From Actinobacteria bacterium Ga0077560 (GTDB lineage Bacteria > Actinomycetota > Thermoleophilia > Miltoncostaeales > Miltoncostaeaceae), in assembly GCA_001464275.1 (NCBI GenBank), contig LNFL01000071.1:32894-96893 (forward strand): 64,000 nt of DNA, read 5' to 3'. Below, in pieces: positions 1,518-14,014 of this stretch (positions are counted from its first letter, which is position 1; every line of letters starts with the position of its first letter). Both the position numbers and the translations under genes were made by a program. The notes beneath the pieces are model-generated. The model was not told the DNA's origin, searched no databases, and was given only the letters and a program-made list of their open reading frames with translations.

Positions 1518-1630
1518 CCGGGACAAATCGTGAGAAAGCCCTGCTGACTGAGTGGTCCTACGCGTTGTTGACCCGTTGTGGTTCCGGCTCGGTTCCCCAA
1601 GGGCGCGGACGGTCGGACGGCACCTCGCTT

Positions 1631-1949
1631 TCAGTGCCTGCTATGGGCGCCAGGACCCTCTGATCCGCTCCGGTCACAGCCCGACAGATCCGTCGCGTGC
1701 TTCGACCCGCGAGCCCGGGAACGAGCCGCATTGACTCGGCAGGCTGTCCTCTTACGCGTGGTGAGCGCAATCGCCGCGACTCCCACAAGCGCCACCGCGA
1801 TCCCCGCGGTCCAGCCCAGGATGGTGACCGCAGCGATGCCACCCACAACGGTCCCGGCGACGACAGCGGGACCGACCGCACAACACGCGAGCGCCAGGGC
1901 GCCCGCAGCGACTCCACCCAACCAGCCGAGGGTCTGGGGTCGCTTCACC
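1631..1949 (-). CDS. Small membrane protein with vicinal Cys pair in TM1 (MerF/MerT-like metal transporter candidate)
   Basis: The GTG start overlaps the upstream stop (GTGA at 1945-1949). GALALACCAVGPAVVAG and a second hydrophobic helix are followed by a basic tail. The CC-in-helix motif is reminiscent of mercuric ion transport proteins. Confidence 0.5.
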
Positions 1950-2244
1950 GGGCGAGCACCTCGGTGAGTTGGTCGACGCTCGGAGCACCCTGAGGGCCGT
2001 CGGCTGTGCGGTAGATTCGGCACGAGAGGCCGACAGGTCCTGCCTGGTCCGGAAAGGCATCGTGACCGTCGATGACCACGGACGGCGATCCCCGAAAGCC
2101 GATCTGCTCAGCCTGGTCGTGTGTCTCGATGACCTCGTGAACGATCGCAACGCTCCTACCCGATAGGCGCAGAGCCTCCCGCAGTCGTTCTTCGGCGACC
2201 TTCCAGTTCGGGCATTCGGTGAAGTACCTCAACGTGACCTGCAT
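1945..2244 (-). CDS. Thioredoxin-fold protein (99 aa), MerR-associated
   Basis: MQVTLRYFTECPNW...GFRGSPSVVIDG has the glutaredoxin/thioredoxin-like beta-alpha-beta start and the SP-x-x-x-(I/V)DG cis-Pro region. GGAGGG lies 4 nt before the ATG. Divergent from merR. Confidence 0.6.
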   Translation of the reverse strand: MQVTLRYFTECPNWKVAEERLREALRLSGRSVAIVHEVIETHDQAEQIGFRGSPSVVIDGHDAFPDQAGPVGLSCRIYRTADGPQGAPSVDQLTEVLAR

Positions 2245-2274
2245 CGGCCCTCCACTCGTCGCGCGTTCAGGCCG

Positions 2275-2306
2275 AGGGTAAACCTTGCCCCGCGGGGCAA
2301 GGTCAA
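2275..2306 (-). promoter_or_regulatory. MerR-type promoter/operator: TTGACC - 20 bp - TACCCT with a perfect 22-bp palindrome in the spacer
   Basis: The palindrome ACCTTGCCCCGCGGGGCAAGGT spans 2282-2303. On the minus strand, -35 TTGACC (2301-2306) and -10 TACCCT (2275-2280) are separated by 20 bp, the over-long spacer typical of MerR-activated promoters. Confidence 0.6.
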
Positions 2307-2322
2307 GGGCTATCGTGGAGCG

Positions 2323-2646
2323 ATGAGAATTGGGGAGCTGGCGGCGCGCGCCGGAGTCACCGCCAAGGCCTTGCGGCACTACGAACGAGTGGGTCTGGTG
2401 GTGCCGGAGCGCACCGAGTCCGGGTACCGGGACTACTCGGCCTCCGCATTGGGCCGCATCGGGTTCATCCTCGCCGGTCAGCGGGTTGGGCTGTCGCTTC
2501 GCGAGCTTCGCGGGATCCTCGAGCTGCGCGACCGCGGACACGCCCCCTGCGCACACGCACTTGATCTCGTTGATCAGCGCCTTCGCGAAATCGAGGAACG
2601 CCTCGCCAGCCTGTCCGCGATGCGCCGAGGCCGGAAGGTCCCTTGA
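2323..2646 (+). CDS. MerR family (heavy-metal/redox-responsive) transcriptional regulator
   Basis: MRIGELAARAGVTAKALRHYERVGLV HTH, a coiled-coil dimerisation helix and a C-terminal Cys (HAPCAH). TATCGT ends 7 nt before the ATG, so the mRNA may be leaderless. Confidence 0.85.
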   Translation: MRIGELAARAGVTAKALRHYERVGLVVPERTESGYRDYSASALGRIGFILAGQRVGLSLRELRGILELRDRGHAPCAHALDLVDQRLREIEERLASLSAMRRGRKVP

Positions 2647-2848
2647 TCCCGTGGACTGCGACGAGGCCTGCATCTGCGAGGTCATCCACCGGCCGTCTCG
2701 CTGATCGCCTGCCGGCAGAGTCTCGGTGGGTTGCTCCGCATGTCGAGTTGCGCTGTCGGGGAACCTCCACCCGTCGCGGCGCGGCGGTTCATAGAGTGCA
2801 ACGGAGAGGTCGCTGCCGGGACGTCCACGTCGCGTCGCTGGGCCTCGC

Positions 2849-4561
2849 GTGTCGAGCATCGAGCCCGCCGCGTCCAGCTGTATCTTCGCCCCAGTGACGC
2901 GCATCGCTCTCATTTCTTCTGACAGTCCGGGACACCGCAAGGCCCGTGGAGCCTTCTTCACGCCGCCGGAGCTCTGTACGCACCTCGCGGATTGGGCCAT
3001 CCGGGATCCGGGCGACCAGATTCTGGAGCCCTCATGCGGCGAGGCGGCTTTTCTGCTCGCAGCCGCTCGTCGGCTGGGCGATCTCGGCGCGGCACCGGGA
3101 GGGCTCCACGGCACCGAACTGCACAACGACAGCGTCGCCGCCGCTGGCCGGTACCTGAAGGAAGCTGGCTACGAGGCAGATCTCCAGACCGGGGACTTCT
3201 TCGCGCGCCCCCCAAGGCCGGAGTTCGACGCGGTTGTCGGCAACCCACCGTACGTCCGCTACCAGGGCTTCTCCGGCGACGCACGCTCAGCTGCCCGCGA
3301 GGCTGCACTGCAGGCGGGCGTGCGGCTGTCTGCTCTCGCATCGTCGTGGGCGGCGTTCACGGTGCACGCTGCGCTCTTCCTCAAGCCCCAGGGGCGGTTG
3401 GGTCTGGTCCTCCCGGCGGAGCTCCTCTCCGTCAACTATGCGGCCGAGGTGCGCAGCTTCCTGATGCGCCGGTTCGCGCGGGTACGGTTGGTGCTGTTCA
3501 CGGAGCGCGTGTTCCCGGGCGTCCAGGAAGAAGTCGTGCTCCTCCAGGCGGAAGGGCAGGGTCCAACCGACCACTGCGAGCTCCACCAGGTCCGGGACCT
3601 TGAGGAGCTGGTTTCGTCGACCCAGCTTGTCTCCAGCTGGGTTCCCACCCGACCGAACGCCAAGTGGACCGATGCGCTCCTGCCGGCCGAGGCCCGGGCG
3701 CTCTTCTCCCGCCTTTCCGGCGAGGCAGGCTTCGGCCGCCTCCTTGACTGGGGTGAGACCACCCTCGGAGCGGTGACGGGGAACAACCGCTACTTCGCGC
3801 TCTCGCCGGACGAGGTACAGGCCCTCGGGCTTTCGCCGTCGGACTTGGTGCCGATGTCCCCCACGGGAAGCCGCCACCTGCGGCATCGCCTGGACCTCAC
3901 CGCGGATGACTGGACCCGCCTCGGTGAGGGGGGCGCCCCGACCTGGCTGTTCAGGCCCGAGGGTGAGCCTTCGGCAGCGGCACGACGGTACATCGAGGAG
4001 GGCGAGGCGCGCGGCGTCCAGCTCGCCTACAAGTGCCGGGTACGCGACCCGTGGTGGCGCACCCCGCTTGTGCCGCCGCCGGATCTGTTCGTGACCTACA
4101 TGAACGCCGACACGCCGCGTTTGGTCGGCAACTCCGCCCAGGTGCACCATCTCAACTCGGTCCACGGCCTCTACCTGCACGAGGGCATGGCCGACCTTGG
4201 CCGGTCGCTCCTCCCGCTCGCGTCACTCAACGCGATGACCCTGCTCGGTGCCGAGACGGTCGGGCGCGCCTACGGTGGGGGTCTGCTGAAGCTGGAGCCG
4301 AAAGAAGCCGACCTGCTTCCCGTTCCCTCGCCGCGCGCTGTGAGGGCACAGGCAGGTGCGCTGAGGATGGTCCGGCCCGTGGTCATCGATCTCCTGCGAC
4401 ACGGTCACCTGCTCGAGGCCGTGTCACGCGTCGACAACATCCTCCTGTCCGATGGGATGAGCGTCTCCGCGAGCGAGCTTGCTCAGCTGCGACAGGCGCG
4501 GGCAACCCTCGCCGAGAGGCGTGCGGCGCGCGGCCGTTCGAGCAGCCGCTCCACCGAGTGA
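2849..4561 (+). CDS. N6-adenine DNA methyltransferase (gamma class, Eco57I/TaqI-like) with C-terminal target-recognition region
   Basis: GAFFTPPEL, motif I ILEPSCGEAAFL and motif IV VVGNPPYV. The exact start is uncertain (alternative GTG near 2893). Confidence 0.8.
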   Translation: MSSIEPAASSCIFAPVTRIALISSDSPGHRKARGAFFTPPELCTHLADWAIRDPGDQILEPSCGEAAFLLAAARRLGDLGAAPGGLHGTELHNDSVAAAGRYLKEAGYEADLQTGDFFARPPRPEFDAVVGNPPYVRYQGFSGDARSAAREAALQAGVRLSALASSWAAFTVHAALFLKPQGRLGLVLPAELLSVNYAAEVRSFLMRRFARVRLVLFTERVFPGVQEEVVLLQAEGQGPTDHCELHQVRDLEELVSSTQLVSSWVPTRPNAKWTDALLPAEARALFSRLSGEAGFGRLLDWGETTLGAVTGNNRYFALSPDEVQALGLSPSDLVPMSPTGSRHLRHRLDLTADDWTRLGEGGAPTWLFRPEGEPSAAARRYIEEGEARGVQLAYKCRVRDPWWRTPLVPPPDLFVTYMNADTPRLVGNSAQVHHLNSVHGLYLHEGMADLGRSLLPLASLNAMTLLGAETVGRAYGGGLLKLEPKEADLLPVPSPRAVRAQAGALRMVRPVVIDLLRHGHLLEAVSRVDNILLSDGMSVSASELAQLRQARATLAERRAARGRSSSRSTE

Positions 4562-5469
4562 TGGCTCGCGAGGACGCGTTCTCGGACTTTGACGCCCTGC
4601 TGGCGGGCTACCAGCTGACGGATCCCTGGGAGCACGACCACGGTGAAGCTCCGCTCTACGCGCCGGACTACCGTCTTCTGAGCAGCCTGCTCGGGATCCC
4701 GCTTGATGCCAGACAGGTCTCCGAGAGCGGGCGCTTCGCTCGGGCGATCGACGCCTGGACAGCGCACGAGCTGCGGCGAGCCGGCTTCTCCTCCGATGAG
4801 GTCTGGCCGCGCCCGACACGTCCCCGTGTTCTGGCGCGTGATGTTGCGATGCTGCTGGAGAAGCTGCCCCGCAAACTCTCCGAAGATGTCGCCAGCCGGC
4901 TTCCCGACCTTGCCGCGGTGGGACCCGTTGACGCCAAGGTCCTCGGCAGGGCCTACGAGAAGCAGGTCGACGTGTGCATCGCCCGGTGGGACCGGGGCCC
5001 GGAGCTCCTGATCAGCACGAAAGCCCAGGTGTCGTCCTTCGGCAAGAACCTCCCGAACCGCTTCGAGGAGGCTTACGGCGACGCGGGCAACCTCAGAGGG
5101 CGCTACCCGCTTGCTGCCGTCGGCTTTCTCTTCGTCCAGCGATCAAGCGTGCTGATCCAAGAGCCGGACGCCTTCGAGCGGACGATCGACATGATCCGAA
5201 AGCTGCGGGATCCGGGAGATGGCAACGGGTACACCGCAACCGGCCTGATCCTCGTCGGTTGGGATGACGTGGCCGAGGGGTCGGTCGCCGTCGAGGTTCG
5301 GGAGCACGAGGTCCCCGCCGACGTGGCGGCCCCGCAGTTCTTCACGGCCATGATCCGTCAGGTGCTCACCGCTTCACCGATCAGCTTCCATGTCGCGGTG
5401 CGAAGCCTGCTCGAGCGTCGGCACATCCCCGTACGTGAGGCGGACACCGACCCGGCCACCGACGCATAG
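4561..5469 (+). CDS. Putative type II restriction endonuclease partner (302 aa)
   Basis: Its ATG overlaps the methylase stop (TGATG at 4559-4563). A candidate PD-(D/E)xK-like core is present (EKQVDVCIARWDRGPELLISTKAQ). No other family recognised. Confidence 0.5.
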   Translation: MAREDAFSDFDALLAGYQLTDPWEHDHGEAPLYAPDYRLLSSLLGIPLDARQVSESGRFARAIDAWTAHELRRAGFSSDEVWPRPTRPRVLARDVAMLLEKLPRKLSEDVASRLPDLAAVGPVDAKVLGRAYEKQVDVCIARWDRGPELLISTKAQVSSFGKNLPNRFEEAYGDAGNLRGRYPLAAVGFLFVQRSSVLIQEPDAFERTIDMIRKLRDPGDGNGYTATGLILVGWDDVAEGSVAVEVREHEVPADVAAPQFFTAMIRQVLTASPISFHVAVRSLLERRHIPVREADTDPATDA

Positions 5470-5474
5470 CGGGG

Positions 5475-6683
5475 TCACGTGCTCCGGTGCTGTTGTCGGA
5501 GCCGCTGCAGTGCGTCAGGCGCCTTGGCGAGGTCCGCGTCGGTTGGCTTGACGTATCGGCGGATCGTGAACGCCGCGTCGGCATGTCCGAGGCGCGCGGC
5601 GAGGGCAGGGCCTTGAACGCCCGCCGATGCAAGCCAGGTGCCCTGGCTGTGCCGGAGTACGTGAGGGCTGACGCCCTCCAGATCAGCGTGCTTGACCACC
5701 CGATCGAGACCGGAGCGGACCCGGCCCCCTCGGTCGAGGGGTCGGCCATCCTCGCGCGCGAAAACAAGCGCGTCCTCAGCCGCCGGGGCGCAGCGGTCAC
5801 GGTGCCCGCGTAGGACGTCCGCGTAGGCGTCCTCGATCGGGATGACGCGCGCGCCTGCTTCGCTCTTGGTCGTCGCCCTGGCGATTGCGACACGCGGCGG
5901 TTGCGAGTCGAGGTCGAGGCCGGCGGGTCCCCAGACCAGACGCAGGATCTCCGTGATGCGCGCGCCCGTCGCGATCAGCAGCGCGACGACCGGGGCCATC
6001 AGCGATCGCCCCGTCCGGCTGTCGTCGGCCTCTGCTGCGGCCAGCAGCCGGTCGGCTTCGTCGATGGTGAGCGCCCGTTCTCGCGGCCGGCCTGGTGGCG
6101 GCAGCAGGACCCTCGGCGGGAGAGACTCGATCAGGCCCCGGGAGTAGAGGTCGCGTAGGACCGCGGCCAGGGCGGCGTACGCGACGCGGGCTGTCTCATT
6201 GGAACGATCGACCGAAAGGGCATCGACCATGTTCTGGATGGTCCTGGTGTCGATGGCGTCGCTCGGGAGGGAACCGAGGCCGAGGCCGCTGCGCGGCTCG
6301 GGCCAGGGCAGCACGTGGAGGCGGAGCGTGGTCTCGTAGCCGGCGAGCGTGTTCAGCGCGTACGGGTGCCGTGAGCGGGTGAGGGCCGTGCCCCTGCGCG
6401 CGCGGTGGAGAAAGCTCACCGCCGCGTCGTGAAGCGTCGGTGCGGCGGGTCGAACGTTGGGTCGGCCACCGGCCCGAAGCGTCCACTTGGCCTGCTGAAC
6501 CCAGGCAACCGCGTCCGCGAGGTTCGGGAAGGTGCCAGACAGGAGTCGCCCGCCGACGCGGACCCGAGCGACGAAGACGGGGGAGCAGTCGCAGCTTCGG
6601 CGGCCGCGGCTCTTGCTGCAACCCGTCGAATGGCGCTCGAACACGCTGGGAGCCACACGGGCCTGGTGGCGACGCTCGGTCAC
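5475..6683 (-). CDS. int: Tyrosine recombinase / site-specific integrase
   Basis: ATGARITE (Arg I), HVLRHS (H-x-x-R), LGHAD and RRYV (Tyr) catalytic signature. Immediately downstream of xis. Confidence 0.9.
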   Translation of the reverse strand: MTERRHQARVAPSVFERHSTGCSKSRGRRSCDCSPVFVARVRVGGRLLSGTFPNLADAVAWVQQAKWTLRAGGRPNVRPAAPTLHDAAVSFLHRARRGTALTRSRHPYALNTLAGYETTLRLHVLPWPEPRSGLGLGSLPSDAIDTRTIQNMVDALSVDRSNETARVAYAALAAVLRDLYSRGLIESLPPRVLLPPPGRPRERALTIDEADRLLAAAEADDSRTGRSLMAPVVALLIATGARITEILRLVWGPAGLDLDSQPPRVAIARATTKSEAGARVIPIEDAYADVLRGHRDRCAPAAEDALVFAREDGRPLDRGGRVRSGLDRVVKHADLEGVSPHVLRHSQGTWLASAGVQGPALAARLGHADAAFTIRRYVKPTDADLAKAPDALQRLRQQHRST

Positions 6684-6980
6684 CTACGCGGCTCGCCGGT
6701 CGGTCAGCGGGTCCGGTGCGTCCCAGAGCCGGCCCTCAGAGCCGCGCTGAACGGCTCGGGGCAGGAGGTGTGGGACCCTGGCAGGCGCGACGAGGTCAGA
6801 GATCAGGATGGTGCGTCCCTGCACGTAGGCGTCCAGGTCGGATCGGGCGATTCGCAGCAGTCGCGGCCCGTCACGGAAGACGGGCAGGGCTCCCGCGGCG
6901 ACTCGCCGCTCCAACGTCCGGCGGCTGATCCCGAGCATCTCGGCTGCCTCGGCCAGGGTGAGCAGCGTCCGCCCGTTCAT
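6684..6980 (-). CDS. xis: Excisionase / MerR-like HTH DNA-binding protein
   Basis: LLTLAEAAEMLGISRRTLERRVAAGALP excisionase-type HTH. Its stop abuts the int start codon. Confidence 0.8.
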   Translation of the reverse strand: MNGRTLLTLAEAAEMLGISRRTLERRVAAGALPVFRDGPRLLRIARSDLDAYVQGRTILISDLVAPARVPHLLPRAVQRGSEGRLWDAPDPLTDRRAA

Positions 6981-7221
6981 CGGAGCCCGCGACCGCGGTC
7001 GTCGCCGCCCCGGGGAATCGTCCTGGCGAGCCCCGCTGGTGTCGTCCGATGCCTCCGCGACGCGGGCTGGCGTGTGAGGACTTTCTCTACTCCTTCAAGG
7101 CGGCGGCCTTCGGCCGCCGGCCGCGGACGGACCTTCATTACATTGCGGTCCTGCGGCCCCATGCCGCCTCGTGCTGGAGCGGACGAGCCCACCTGCAACC
7201 CGGAACAGACGCGGCGTCCGC

Positions 7222-10283: not shown

Positions 10284-10329
10284 TGGTACGGACCACGTGT
10301 TCGGCGACCTTAGGATATGGTCCGTACCA
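10284..10329. promoter_or_regulatory. Inverted repeat TGGTACGGACCA / TGGTCCGTACCA in the divergent korSA-tra promoter region (candidate GntR operator)
   Basis: The 12-bp arms at 10284-10295 and 10318-10329 are exact reverse complements. Each contains the GT-N-AC core typical of GntR operators. TAGGAT (10311-10316) is a possible -10. Confidence 0.45.
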
Positions 10330-11036
10330 TGTCCAGCGCAGGTGTTCGATACCGCGAGGTCCGCGAGGCACTCGCCGCGCAGATCACTCGTGGGGATCTC
10401 CAACCCGGGGACCGGCTCCCAAGCGAACGCGACCTGCAAACCCGGTTCGACTGTGCCCGCTCCGTCGTTCGGCAGGCGCTCCAGGCCCTGACCCGCGATG
10501 GCTGGGTGATGTCGGTCTATCCGCGCGGCTACCTCGTGCTCGGACCGCGCATCCCTTGGATCAGCCGCCTGCGACCGCTGCTCGAGGAGCCTTGGCAGGT
10601 GGTCATCGACAGCGCGACGGAGGCCGCAGCAGACGCGGAGGCGGCTGAGGGTCTCGAAGTTCCGTCGGGCGCGCCGACTATCAGGCGCACCAGTCACATC
10701 GAGAGCGCGATCTCACCGGGCGACATCTGGGGCCTCGGCGAGGTGAGCTACGCGGCTGAGGCTCTGACGACCGAGGGGCGTGCTGCCCTTCTGCGGCCGA
10801 GCGAGATCACCTACGACGAACTGGAAGCGGCCGTCGGTCGTCGCATCGTTGGATACCGTGAACGCCTCCGGTCACGGATCTTGACGCCTGCCGAGCTTGA
10901 ATCGCTGAGCCTTCCTGCCGCGATGCCAGCCTTGGAGATGTGGCGAATCGCTCGGAGCACGACGACCCCGGTCTCGGCATTCCGGTTCGTCGCGCGTCCG
11001 GACCGCTTCGAAGCCGACTACCTCATCGACACGTGA
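10317..11036 (+). CDS. GntR-family transcriptional regulator (KorSA-like kill-override/transfer repressor)
   Basis: N-terminal GntR wHTH (YREVREALAAQITRGDLQPGDRLPSERDLQTRFDCARSVVRQALQAL) plus a UTRA-like C-terminal domain. The start may be ATG 10329. Confidence 0.85.
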   Translation: MVRTMSSAGVRYREVREALAAQITRGDLQPGDRLPSERDLQTRFDCARSVVRQALQALTRDGWVMSVYPRGYLVLGPRIPWISRLRPLLEEPWQVVIDSATEAAADAEAAEGLEVPSGAPTIRRTSHIESAISPGDIWGLGEVSYAAEALTTEGRAALLRPSEITYDELEAAVGRRIVGYRERLRSRILTPAELESLSLPAAMPALEMWRIARSTTTPVSAFRFVARPDRFEADYLIDT

Positions 11037-11404
11037 ACCCCGACGAGCCCCTTCGCACCAAGGACCTTGCCAAGGAAGATCCGGCCCCGATGGAGGACAC
11101 CCTCGCCGGCTACCAGTGGCTTCCGAGGATGATCGACAAGGCCCGCGCCAGCCGCGCCGGGACGCTGGGCCAGTACTTCCGATATCCCTGCCCCATCGAC
11201 CAGGAGGCGCTGGCACGCATTGGGCTCGACTCTGAGCAGTTCGCGGAAGTTGCAGACTGTGCCACTACCGCGAATGACGTTCTGGAGTCGCTTGCTGCTC
11301 ATGGAGCCCGATCCGCCCAAGAGGCGGCGTTTGACCCGATCGAGTTGAATCGCCGGCTCCATGAGCCGCCGCTCGACTCACCGGAAGTTGGTGGTGGGTC
11401 CTAG
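11033..11404 (+). CDS. DUF5069-like protein
   Basis: Its GTG overlaps the GntR stop (GTGA at 11033-11036). LAGYQWLPRMIDKARA...YFRYPCPID resembles the DUF5069 signature. Confidence 0.55.
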   Translation: MNPDEPLRTKDLAKEDPAPMEDTLAGYQWLPRMIDKARASRAGTLGQYFRYPCPIDQEALARIGLDSEQFAEVADCATTANDVLESLAAHGARSAQEAAFDPIELNRRLHEPPLDSPEVGGGS

Positions 11405-11479
11405 ACGGACTAAACCTCCGTTGACTCGTCGCCGATAGTCGGTTACTGGTACGGTTTCAGTATTGGTTACTGAGGTGCG

Positions 11480-12286
11480 ATGACCCCGACGACGACCTAC
11501 CCCAATCCTCCTGTGCGGATCGCGGCCTTCGAGGTCCGGTTCCCGCCCGTCGACGCGCTGGCTTCGGAGGCCGCTGTTCGGCCGCTCCATCGCGAGCTCC
11601 GGACGACGTTCCCCTTCTTTGAACCGTTCCAAGTCCCCTTGGGGCTCCAAATCCAGCCCGATGGGGTGGTTCACGAAGTTGCTAGACGGGTCCGCCTCTC
11701 GTCCCGTACTCGGCGGACGGTGGTCAGCATTGGCGCCGACATCGCGATCATCGAGACGAGCGAGTACCGAAGTTTCGAGGAACTAAGGGCCATGGTCTGG
11801 GACCTGATGGGTCGAATCCAAGGGCTAGACGAGATCCTCGGGACGTCAAGGGTGGGCCTGCGCTACGTGAACGAGATCCGTATTCCCCAAGTCGGCGACG
11901 ATCCGCTCGGTTGGCCCCCCTACATCAGTGAGGCACTCGTCGCTCCGATGCGGCTGTCGAGCAAGCCTCTTCAGATCATGCAGGGGGCCGTCGTGTACCG
12001 GCCAGAGGAGACACGTGGCGTAGTCCTGAGATTCGGGGCGCTAAAGGGCAGAAGCGTGGACCTCGGTGGTCCGCTGCGGGTCCCAGACCTTGGGGATGGA
12101 CCATTCTTCCTCCTCGATATCGATAGCTACTGGGAGAATCCGCCGGACGAGCTTCCTGAATTCAGCCCTCAAGGAGTTGTGGAGGTTCTCGACCGTCTTC
12201 ACAACGCTGCGCAGGACGTGTTCGAGGCATCCATTACGGACAAGGCGCGTGGGCAGTTCGGTGCGCCCGGAGCAATCGGGAGGTGA
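11480..12286 (+). CDS. TIGR04255-like uncharacterised protein (268 aa)
   Basis: The N-terminus YPNPPVRIAAFEVRFPP matches my recollection of the TIGR04255 family start. GAGG precedes the ATG. First gene of a three-gene block. Confidence 0.6.
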   Translation: MTPTTTYPNPPVRIAAFEVRFPPVDALASEAAVRPLHRELRTTFPFFEPFQVPLGLQIQPDGVVHEVARRVRLSSRTRRTVVSIGADIAIIETSEYRSFEELRAMVWDLMGRIQGLDEILGTSRVGLRYVNEIRIPQVGDDPLGWPPYISEALVAPMRLSSKPLQIMQGAVVYRPEETRGVVLRFGALKGRSVDLGGPLRVPDLGDGPFFLLDIDSYWENPPDELPEFSPQGVVEVLDRLHNAAQDVFEASITDKARGQFGAPGAIGR

Positions 12287-12289
12287 ACG

Positions 12290-12928
12290 ATGACGACAAG
12301 AGCTCCCTTCCCCACAGCTGGCGAGACGAAGACTGTGGTGGAGCCTCAGCTCCCCCATCAAACAGATGTCGTAGCGCTGAATCGCGACGCAGCTGGTCTA
12401 CGAGATGTCGTGTCGCTGCTGCACGCGCGATCCCAGCAGCTTCACGGCGACACCCAGCGAGCCGAACTCTCGGCGCTGACCAATGAACGGCTGAAAAGGG
12501 CGGTTGGCGACCTCCTAGACGAGCTGTCAATTGACCACGGTATGGCCTGGTCTCATATCGCCCGCCTCGTGGGCGTCAGCGTGCCCGCCCTGCGCAAGTG
12601 GCGTCAGGGATCTGCCCCTGATCCTGAGAATCGGCGGCGATTGGCGGGTCTCTCAGCGTTCCTCGAACTGCTTGCGCGGTTCCCGGTTGAAGAGCCTTCA
12701 GGGTGGCTGGAAGCACGCCTCACCGACGAATCCACCCTGACCGGTCTCGACGTCTACTCGACGCCAGGGGGGGCGGTTGGGTTGCTCGAGTACGCCGGCC
12801 GACGATGCTCAGCCGAAGGCCTCTTGGACGCGCAGGTTCCGGACTGGAGAGCAACATCCGCACCTGACCCGCGCTTGCGAATCGTCGAAACGGACGATGG
12901 AGGCAGGTCGCTGGTTCTCGAGGGTTAG
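12290..12928 (+). CDS. Xre-type HTH protein with antitoxin-like (DUF2384-reminiscent) C-terminal region
   Basis: The ATG is 3 nt after the upstream stop, with GGGAGG inside the upstream gene's end. HTH is WSHIARLVGVSVPALRKWRQG. The C-terminus reads LTGLDVYSTPGGAVGLLEYAGR. Confidence 0.6.
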   Translation: MTTRAPFPTAGETKTVVEPQLPHQTDVVALNRDAAGLRDVVSLLHARSQQLHGDTQRAELSALTNERLKRAVGDLLDELSIDHGMAWSHIARLVGVSVPALRKWRQGSAPDPENRRRLAGLSAFLELLARFPVEEPSGWLEARLTDESTLTGLDVYSTPGGAVGLLEYAGRRCSAEGLLDAQVPDWRATSAPDPRLRIVETDDGGRSLVLEG

Positions 12929-12942
12929 CCAGGGTTCCCGGG

Positions 12943-13653
12943 ATGTTGGCCGCGCCGGATGGAGGGGTGACAAGCATCTACCTCGCCCGCGGCGACGAGG
13001 TGGATTCGTTCCGGCCTCTCCTGACCGGCGACATCTTCAGCGACACGGAGATTCCAGGCGTCGATACCGATACGGGACTCTCTATGGTCCTCGATCATCC
13101 ATGCTCGATGCGCCGGGGCGTGACCCTTGCCGGACACCTGGTCATGGCAAGGGTCATTTCGCGTCCGGACCTCCCGCGACCGGCGAAGTGGCCGACCGAC
13201 GGACTTTGGGATCTCCTTCCGTTGCCGGAACTCGACAGTTCCGGAGAGCGCCGCGCCGCAGCCCTTGATCAGATTGGCCGCGTGCCTTCGGCATCGCTCG
13301 ACCTGGGTCGACGGGTCGCATGCCTCTCTGACCAAGGCATTGTCCTTCTGATTCAGCGCCAGATCCATCGCCTCAGTCGCTTCGTAGCGCCTCTTGCTGA
13401 TCTCTACGAGGTCTGCGCCCCTGTTCTGACCGAAGCGGATCTGCTGACGGAATGGAATGCGGAGCTCGTGCCTCATCGCCAGAAGGCGACCGGCGCAGCG
13501 TTGGCAGAGGCGATGGTCGCCGAGACCGGCCATTTCGAGGCGTTTCTGGCCGGTGATGAGCCATCCCTACGCGAACAACTCAAGACCGATCACCTGCGGA
13601 GCGGAGTCCGGAGGGCCGTCCGGCTGGAGATCCGAGAACGACGAGCACGTTGA
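12943..13653 (+). CDS. Orphan hypothetical protein (236 aa), last gene before attR
   Basis: ATG ORF 14 nt after the HTH gene, with codon bias like its neighbours. No recognisable catalytic motif. Confidence 0.5.
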   Translation: MLAAPDGGVTSIYLARGDEVDSFRPLLTGDIFSDTEIPGVDTDTGLSMVLDHPCSMRRGVTLAGHLVMARVISRPDLPRPAKWPTDGLWDLLPLPELDSSGERRAAALDQIGRVPSASLDLGRRVACLSDQGIVLLIQRQIHRLSRFVAPLADLYEVCAPVLTEADLLTEWNAELVPHRQKATGAALAEAMVAETGHFEAFLAGDEPSLREQLKTDHLRSGVRRAVRLEIRERRAR

Positions 13654-13786: not shown

Positions 13787-13832
13787 GAAGCCGACGCGGG
13801 GACTCGAACCCCGGACCCCATCATTACGAGTG
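13787..13832. repeat. att site (tRNA-proximal copy), 46 bp
   Basis: Identical to 1472-1517. It covers the tRNA-Thr from the anticodon stem to 2 nt past the 3' end. Confidence 0.9.
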
Positions 13833-13861
13833 ATGTGCTCTACCAGCTGAGCTACGTCGGC
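13789..13861 (-). tRNA. tRNA-Thr (anticodon CGU), 73 nt, CCA not encoded
   Basis: The reverse complement GCCGACGTAGCTCAGCTGGTAGAGCACATCACTCGTAATGATGGGGTCCGGGGTTCGAGTCCCCGCGTCGGCT folds by hand into a cloverleaf. Stems are 7-bp acceptor, 4-bp D, 5-bp anticodon and 5-bp T, with a GTTCGAGTC T-loop and a CTCGTAA anticodon loop. Confidence 0.95.
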
Positions 13862-14014
13862 CCGCCGGGGGACGTGCCCCGGGCCCGGGAAGGATAGCGC
13901 CGAGACGCGGGGAGTCGAGGGGTCCGCCGTTCGTGACCCAGGGTGACGTTGTGCCCGATCCCGCCGGGGCCGTAGGTTGGCCCCGTGAGCGTGCCCCACC
14001 GAGAGAGGTCCCAT

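Follow-up and report, generated by a model that had tools for sequence, protein, structure and literature searches.

The 64,000-nt stretch of contig LNFL01000071.1 from Actinobacteria bacterium Ga0077560 analyzed here (hereafter the window, to which unlabelled coordinates refer) carries an integrative element whose last genes before the right attachment site form a compact three-gene module, referred to below as the trio. The three open reading frames (ORFs; Table 1) share one strand and are separated by only 3 nt (genes 1 and 2) and 14 nt (genes 2 and 3), exactly as reported in a preliminary description made from the sequence alone. The GGGAGG ribosome-binding site which that description had seen within the end of gene 1 was located there, and its TTGACT hexamer lies at the position it gave; this hexamer could serve as the −35 element of the operon promoter. 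A scan for consensus promoters and terminators returned no full sigma-70 match and no consensus site. The GC content is 63.2% for the trio, 67.6% for the whole element and 74.6% for downstream host DNA, and the third-position GC content (GC3) is 0.67–0.73 for the trio, 0.77–0.83 for the core genes of the element and 0.96 for one host gene. The earlier hand counts of GC in three 60-nt lines (32/60, 38/60 and 46/60) were exact on recount.

Table 1. Features of the trio and its surroundings (window coordinates).
Feature	Position	Strand	Remarks
Candidate −35 hexamer of the operon promoter	11421-11426	+	TTGACT
Three direct repeat units, candidate operator	11441-11476	+	12-nt period; ends 3 nt before the gene 1 ATG
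Gene 1	11480-12286	+	268 aa, ATG start; TIGR04255 family
Ribosome-binding site for gene 2	12278-12283	+	GGGAGG; within the end of gene 1, directly before its TGA
Gene 2	12290-12928	+	212 aa, ATG start; helix-turn-helix protein, candidate repressor/antitoxin
Gene 3	12943-13653	+	236 aa, ATG start; candidate effector/toxin
tRNA-Thr(CGT)	13787-13862	−	3' 46 nt (13787-13832) form attR; attL copy at 1472-1517

The suggestion that the three genes belong together was borne out by all 16 distinct related loci examined. The genes were recognized by profile E-values of 1e-29 to 1e-126, and both gene order and strand were identical in 16/16. The loci (numbered with the prefix L) were entered through gene 3 (L001–L003, L010–L014 and the Rhodococcus plasmid pNAPH), through gene 2 (L004–L008) or through gene 1 (L016 and L018). 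Because order, strand and overlapping or abutting gene ends are kept in every locus irrespective of which of the three genes gave access to it, the trio is a real unit; the proteins of the related loci average only about 33–37% identity. The loci with a named source all come from Actinomycetota (Solirubrobacterales, Thermoleophilia, Gaiellaceae and Rhodococcus). The scan of the genome collection relied on two peptide patterns and gave only five loci, so that this taxonomic breadth is under-sampled. Proteins identical to those of genes 1 and 3 are also present in the GenBank metagenome project LNFM01, on a 349-kb contig.

The coupling of the genes is conserved as well. The start of gene 2 mostly overlaps the stop of gene 1 in an ATGnCTGA arrangement preceded by a GGAGG-like site, and gene 3 starts 0–18 nt past the stop of gene 2 or overlaps it. 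All three genes are intact in 13 of the 16 loci, while the other three loci carry single frameshifts in long-read-style metagenome contigs, which may be errors. In 11 of the 16 loci (L004, L007, L008, L010–L014, L016, L018 and L019), gene 3 lies in the same frame as gene 2 with one stop and 0–6 codons between them, where about five would be expected by chance; the window does not belong to this class, as its frames differ. Such junctions may reflect shared ancestry, or termination–reinitiation or occasional readthrough giving a gene 2–gene 3 fusion. The 479-aa protein P0141 of the representative library provides one more gene 2–gene 3 adjacency. It was considered as a true fusion and rejected, since its Arg-rich middle reads out of frame, which makes a frameshift or gene-call artefact likelier.

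Gene 3 belongs to no family in Pfam, NCBIfam, PADLOC or PHROG, and the same holds across 135 relatives; it gave no useful PDB match by sequence, and no homolog was found in the phage genomes searched. The preliminary description, which could place no motif in this protein, was right as far as sequence families go; structure prediction goes further. The AlphaFold2 (AF2) model (predicted local distance difference test, pLDDT, 85.4; predicted template-modeling score, pTM, 0.83) shows a β-rich N-terminal domain (residues ~1–128) followed by a C-terminal helical domain (130–235). The top 31 Foldseek matches in the PDB are all MazF or CcdB (probability 0.84–1.0), with target-normalized template-modeling (TM) scores of 0.53–0.71 over ~125 columns. 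The N-terminal domain is accordingly predicted to have the MazF/CcdB toxin fold, an SH3-like barrel, and because of this predicted fold the toxin–antitoxin (TA)-like reading of the locus is strengthened. The family is large: clustering at 50% identity leaves 808 representatives, and 335 of these reach E ≤ 1e-30.

The conserved residues of gene 3 are R24-P25, G29-D30, H52-P53-C54, R57, R124 and E164, with R24-P25, which precedes strand 2, at least 90% conserved or invariant. In E. coli MazF, the catalytic R29 and T52 belong to R29-P30 in the loop between strands 1 and 2 and to P50-C51-T52 in the loop between strands 3 and 4; judged from the secondary-structure register, R24-P25 and H52-P53-C54 of gene 3 would fall in these two loops.

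For gene 2, the Xre-type helix-turn-helix (HTH) proposed earlier stood at the level of the family: the window protein itself has only sub-threshold HTH matches in Pfam, but HTH_23 is matched by 50 and HTH_3 by 42 of 52 relatives. The HTH spans approximately residues 84–106 and lies in an MbcA-like module at ~82–170. A profile built from the 52 sequences has MbcA (6fkg_C) as its top PDB match (E = 0.011, 18.9 bits, query 82–170 against chain 16–105), in an alignment that spans the HTH and the W..P..DL..G region; ParS (6d0h_B) follows at E = 1.5, and a four-sequence profile found nothing in the PDB. The suspected DUF2384 domain was rejected by the Pfam hidden Markov model (PF09722), which matched 0/52 relatives at E ≤ 0.1 and did not match the window protein at E ≤ 1. 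Given the MbcA and ParS profile matches, the DUF2384 impression is unconfirmed yet not baseless.

The gene 2 family comprises 76 clusters at 90% identity. Gene 2 also carries ~75 additional residues at its N-terminus and ends in a conserved tail (P184-x-W186-R187, D203-G204). On plasmid 8 of Tsukamurella tyrosinosolvens (L022, NZ_LR134450.1, 3974–4426), a 150-aa protein resembles residues 76–187 of gene 2 with 37% identity and stands alone among small phage-like genes. Because it has no TIGR04255 or gene 3 partner, the HTH/MbcA-like module circulates on its own too.

Gene 1 is a full-length member of TIGR04255, as had been suspected from its start. The NCBIfam model gives 132.2 bits (E = 2.8e-38, profile positions 2–252 of 252) against a curated cutoff of 30 bits, the homologs in L001–L003 score 134–149 bits, and the Rhodococcus copy is named ‘TIGR04255 family protein’ by the Prokaryotic Genome Annotation Pipeline (PGAP). 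Gene 1 has no Pfam or PADLOC match and no useful PDB match by sequence, and a literature search for ‘TIGR04255’ returned no searchable paper that mentions the family. The AF2 model, based on a 25-sequence alignment (pLDDT 92.5, pTM 0.89), predicts a duplicated β-α-β4-α topology, and its PDB matches are weak, limited to TBP and AdoMetDC (TM ≤ 0.42). A comparison of the N- and C-terminal halves gave no significant internal repeat at the sequence level, only a nine-residue EvRfP/EIRvP echo. Y96, R124, G126, R128, Y129, D213, D215, T253 and R257 are invariant in the alignment.

Relatives of gene 1 were also seen in viral collections. The 202-aa viral protein BFVD A0A515MGR4 has the gene 1 fold (Foldseek E = 5e-8, TM 0.56), and PHROG 5464, to which no function is assigned, matches the N-terminal half of gene 1 (E = 2e-4). 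Because of these two matches, TIGR04255-like proteins can be said to occur in phages as well.

The leader of the trio contains a candidate regulatory site. Both GGTTACTG direct repeats of the preliminary description are real, lie exactly at 11441–11448 and 11465–11472, and belong to a longer array of three units (GGTTAC at 11441, GGTTTC at 11453 and GGTTAC at 11465). Almost every related locus has a comparable three-unit array, with an 11–13-nt period, immediately before gene 1. Across 501,704 nt, a strict periodic pattern was matched 15 times, with 12 of the matches in the 120 nt before gene 1, in 11/17 loci; the pattern was picked after inspection of the data, so that a nominal P-value is inflated. 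In out-of-sample scoring with the hexamer of the window, the segment before gene 1 ranks first in six other loci and in the top 1–6% in four more, and the low-scoring loci carry a variant repeat unit.

Without exception (12 + 4 loci), each type of repeat unit goes with one type of sequence at the beginning of the recognition helix of gene 2. In 12 loci, units of the GTTAC, GTTAT or GTTTC type go with a VSVPA helix (VSVQA in L013), and in four loci GTTCG units go with a V(S/T)-x-(A/T)-A helix. By hand calculation, and with phylogeny ignored, the chance of such a partition is 1 in 1820. Because the unit sequence co-varies with the recognition helix, the array is a candidate operator that gene 2 would read.

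The element that carries the trio is bounded by a 46-nt perfect direct repeat (1472–1517 and 13787–13832), which marks both of its ends and gives it a size of 12.3 kb. Inside it lie RepSA (411.7 bits by profile search), an FtsK/SpoIIIE Tra-like protein, a tyrosine integrase, a GntR/UTRA regulator and a DUF5069 protein. Because RepSA, FtsK/SpoIIIE and the tyrosine integrase are found within an element bounded by direct repeats at a tRNA attachment site, the carrier is an actinobacterial integrative and conjugative element (AICE) of the pSAM2 type. Mapping of the repeat and of the tRNA-Thr gene bore out the earlier placement of the trio as the final cargo before attR. The same position recurs elsewhere: the window and three other elements (four loci: L004/L005, L006 and L010) have a tRNA gene 110–320 nt past gene 3, so that the trio is repeatedly the final cargo before a tRNA attachment site. 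In L010, a pair of tRNA-Arg(CCT) genes in opposite orientation (1356–1430, minus; 6976–7051, plus) brackets ~5.5 kb with the trio, which is unusual for an integration site.

The neighborhoods of the related loci are diverse. Integrases adjoin L002, L004/L005 and L023, TrwC and MobF relaxases adjoin L004/L005 and pNAPH, and RepSA adjoins L006. L007 has Mom and MazG-like prophage genes among its neighbors and L008 has TrbL and Tad genes; L016 shows no visible mobility genes. Further neighbors are GmrSD at L003, Fic at L001 and a PIN TA pair at L004. Downstream of the element in L004 (11172–11366), near the 3' end of a Peptidase_S8 gene, lies a tandem array with a 15-nt period and eight overlapping copies reported, which codes for a repeated pentapeptide-like motif.

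A restriction–modification system had been proposed for the other arm of the window element. The methyltransferase was confirmed there as a type II N6 enzyme (651 bits, within 2849–4561); no restriction enzyme was identified on this arm. The integrase (5475–6683, minus) is set back from the element end, with ~4 kb separating it from attL, and this stretch also holds two ORFs without a family match (within 4033–5469, plus; 1945–3126, minus). The stretch is a second cargo slot in the arm that runs from 1518 to 6683, and a restriction partner for the methyltransferase is possible. Directly upstream of the trio is the DUF5069 gene (10940–11404); because its ORF as listed overlaps the end of the GntR/UTRA gene (10317–11036) by ~97 nt, its true start is probably further downstream. 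The spacer between gene 3 and the tRNA contains no hairpin and folds no better than shuffled sequences (z = −0.03), and an Rfam search found the tRNA only, with neither an Rfam family nor a stable RNA structure in the leader or the 3' spacer.

Two Rhodococcus plasmids provide a natural disruption of the module. The order on pNAPH of R. pyridinivorans (L019, NZ_CP063451.1) is MobF, gene 1, gene 2, an intact gene 3, and then the type IV coupling protein (T4CP) and conjugation genes. Its gene 3 (5950–6621, ~222 aa, starting MSEDEFLETPP) is annotated in RefSeq only as a 150-aa C-terminal part (WP_193904039.1), which leaves the N-terminal MazF-fold half unannotated. On pRaL13e of R. aetherivorans (L020/L021, NZ_CP130482.1), the gene 1 and gene 2 proteins are identical to those of pNAPH and again lie beside MobF, and gene 3 is split by a ~20-kb block flanked by ISL3, IS110 and IS1380 transposases. 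This block includes catabolic genes (catC and an enolase-like gene). Gene 3 is apparently disrupted in L004/L005 too. Because genes 1 and 2 persist stably on pRaL13e in the absence of an intact gene 3, the plasmid fits gene 3 as a toxic or dispensable effector partner, and it argues against gene 3 as a chaperone or antitoxin that keeps gene 1 harmless.

With this evidence in hand, we tentatively favor a reading of the trio as an autoregulated tripartite TA or abortive-defense cargo module, in which gene 3 is the effector, gene 2 the repressor and antitoxin, and gene 1 an obligate partner; it is the most probable of the readings weighed here and still short of probable in absolute terms. It builds on co-conservation, gene coupling, predicted folds, the conserved repeat array and helix–repeat co-variation, while toxicity, neutralization, the binding partners and the trigger are the parts that we infer. 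The genes also have generic traits of type II TA systems, being small, co-directional and translationally coupled, with a patchy distribution linked to mobile elements.

In this tripartite model, the trio would be expressed as one operon at the ends of actinobacterial integrative and conjugative elements and would serve addiction and/or abortive anti-phage or anti-plasmid defense. Its effector would be the gene 3 protein, a putative MazF/CcdB-fold domain fused to a helical domain. It would most likely cut RNA without metal; poisoning of an enzyme in the manner of CcdB seems less likely. The most conserved loops of gene 3 (R24-P25 and, after strand 3, H52-P53-C54-x-x-R57) would lie where MazF has its active-site Arg and Thr. 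Gene 2 would bind the three 12-nt-spaced GGTTAC-type repeats over the promoter or leader and thereby repress the operon, and it would probably bind and neutralize gene 3 as well; the MbcA profile match speaks for this role, and so does the match of the middle gene of the distant L015 trio, described below, to Pfam ‘Antitoxin Xre-like HTH’. Gene 1, translationally coupled to gene 2, would be the obligate third partner and may sense the trigger or modulate the complex.

Several observations weigh against this model. None of the 135 gene 3 relatives matches PF02452 (MazF/PemK) or PF01845 (CcdB) at E ≤ 1, and an hhalign comparison of the gene 3 N-terminal domain with a small MazF/Kid alignment gave a probability of 0.1%; this non-significant alignment did pair RP with RP. 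S55, at the position equivalent to the catalytic Thr of MazF, varies between S, A, Q, T and V. The MbcA match of gene 2 is borderline, and its relatives are rejected by the DUF2384 model. Known MbcA/ParS/Xre antitoxins pair with RES or ADP-ribosyltransferase (ART) toxins and are not known to pair with MazF-fold proteins. The helix–repeat co-variation could stem from shared ancestry. PADLOC-DB 2.0.0 gave no match at E ≤ 1 for any of the three proteins, which agrees with the earlier statement that the trio matches no named system. The remaining points against the model speak for an alternative division of labor.

According to this alternative, genes 1 and 3 form the functional pair, a MazF-fold toxin with a TIGR04255 antitoxin or immunity protein, and gene 2 is a transcriptional regulator only, following the logic of omega-epsilon-zeta or PaaR-PaaA-ParE. 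In L023, where a distant TIGR04255 gene adjoins an integrase, the very next gene is a probable gene 3 relative (hhalign probability 50%, E = 2e-4, over the R-x-x-C-L-S...QQR...TR segment), with no HTH gene between the two; because of this arrangement, gene 2 may be only a regulator and gene 1 the neutralizer. L015 again links the two families: downstream of a TIGR04255 gene with 26% identity come the gene for a 292-aa HTH protein, which matches Pfam ‘Antitoxin Xre-like HTH’ below threshold (E = 8e-4), and then a weak gene 3 relative (hhalign probability 68%). Because of the architectures of L015 and L023, the link between TIGR04255 and the MazF-fold protein may be the older core. On the short contig of L024, the gene downstream of a third distant TIGR04255 gene is unrelated. 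Pairwise identities also track each other more closely for genes 1 and 3 (correlation 0.60) than for genes 2 and 3 (0.38), and known tripartite systems encode the reader of a direct-repeat array, omega for example, as a protein of its own. On the other side, the HTH-less arrangement is a single example on a 4-kb contig with moderate homology, gene 2 has an MbcA-like module beyond its HTH, and L006 and L007 show apparent gene 1 frameshifts with genes 2 and 3 intact, which may be long-read assembly errors. We consider this division of labor unlikely, yet somewhat likelier than the two rival readings that follow.

Somewhat less probable still is a role without toxicity, in which the trio would serve mobile elements as a regulatory or housekeeping module, for example in integration, excision, transfer or entry exclusion, with gene 2 as a transcription factor and genes 1 and 3 as signal- or DNA-binding accessory proteins. 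The trio does lie directly beside integrases, relaxases, T4CP genes and att/tRNA sites, it has no toxin signature at the sequence level, and the predicted fold of gene 1 bears a weak likeness to that of the DNA-binding protein TBP. Such a role is at odds with the variety of carriers: the trio occurs on a pSAM2-type AICE, MOBF plasmids, TrwC elements and a prophage-like region, as well as at loci without visible mobility genes such as L016, and because unrelated element types carry it, it is typical of autonomous cargo rather than of core machinery. Moreover, gene 3 is lost in pRaL13e while the conjugation genes of the plasmid are kept, and it has a predicted toxin fold. A reversed, TAC-like logic, with gene 1 as the toxin, gene 2 as a HigA/MqsA-like HTH antitoxin and gene 3 as a chaperone-like stabilizer of the antitoxin, would suit a gene order that mirrors HigB-HigA-SecB and the many invariant charged residues of gene 1 that suggest an active site (R124, R128, Y129, D213, D215, E249 and R257), but it is very improbable, as cells should not survive the disruption of gene 3 beside intact genes 1 and 2, seen on pRaL13e and apparently in L004/L005, if this gene encoded an addiction chaperone, its predicted fold is that of a toxin, and neither gene 1 (hhalign probability of 0.1% against E. 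coli SecB; SecB absent from the top 50 fold matches) nor gene 3 resembles SecB.

Read as a tripartite TA or defense module, the trio shares features with several known systems and coincides with none. In the literature on DUF2384, MazF, tripartite systems, AICEs and TA or defense, no searchable paper describes the trio, and NetFlax mentions the MazF/PemK fold only generically. As in MazEF, Kis-Kid and CcdAB, the gene of the putative toxin closes an operon that is translationally coupled, probably autoregulated and located on mobile elements, its N-terminal domain is predicted to have the same fold, and it has Arg-Pro before strand 2 and Pro-Cys after strand 3 (by the register described above). 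Unlike these toxins, gene 3 shows no detectable sequence homology; it is twice the size of MazF owing to the extra 105-residue helical domain, and its conserved constellation is His-Pro-Cys...Arg. Its partner is HTH/MbcA-like rather than an AbrB- or RHH-type MazE or CcdA, and the trio has an obligatory third gene.

The Xre-RES, MbcTA and ParST systems, whose antitoxins combine an Xre-like HTH (PF20432) with DUF2384, resemble the trio in that the putative toxin gene is directly preceded by an antitoxin-like gene 2, whose HTH and W..P..DL..G region align, at the borderline score given above, with almost all of MbcA; the Pfam match of the L015 middle gene is a further likeness. They differ from it in the DUF2384 domain that gene 2 relatives fail to match, in the additional N-terminal region and conserved C-terminal tail of gene 2, and in the number of genes; genes 1 and 3 match no RES or ART model, and their predicted folds are TBP-like and MazF-like. 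With tripartite TA systems (TAC HigBA-SecB, CmdTAC, omega-epsilon-zeta, PaaR-PaaA-ParE and HipBST), the trio has in common three co-directional coupled genes on mobile DNA and one DNA-binding component, and with omega a candidate regulator that would read short direct-repeat arrays. Its proteins show no SecB, zeta, ParE or HipA signature, and in contrast to TAC, neither gene 1 nor the gene 3 family has a Pfam SecB match. Gene 1 is a full-length TIGR04255 protein; what is new, at least for this branch, is the constant association of the family with an HTH protein and a predicted MazF-fold protein.

In a bolder reading, TIGR04255 proteins and the large, so far unrecognized family of proteins with a MazF fold plus a helical domain would be the conserved core of a new addiction or defense class on mobile elements, in which a TBP-like gene 1 pseudo-dimer senses nucleic acid or protein from an invader and then sets free a non-canonical nuclease that has a His-Cys-Arg site, and an MbcA-like HTH protein was recruited in Actinomycetota as an operator-reading repressor and antitoxin. 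We regard this scenario as doubtful; if true, it would provide the first function for the long-orphan TIGR04255 family.

Together, our results place TIGR04255, for years a family of no assigned function, in a constant genomic association, and they supply a structural model for it and a role that can be tested. Gene 3 represents what is predicted to be a sizeable MazF/CcdB-fold family (about 800 clusters at 50% identity) that is invisible to sequence methods, and its partner is a candidate antitoxin of a type that has so far been known to accompany only RES and ART toxins. The position of the module, immediately before the tRNA att site, is a cargo slot that actinobacterial integrative elements use repeatedly, and the conserved array with its helix co-variation suggests a directly testable protein–DNA specificity code. 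If confirmed, the trio would widen the known mix-and-match of TA and defense parts.

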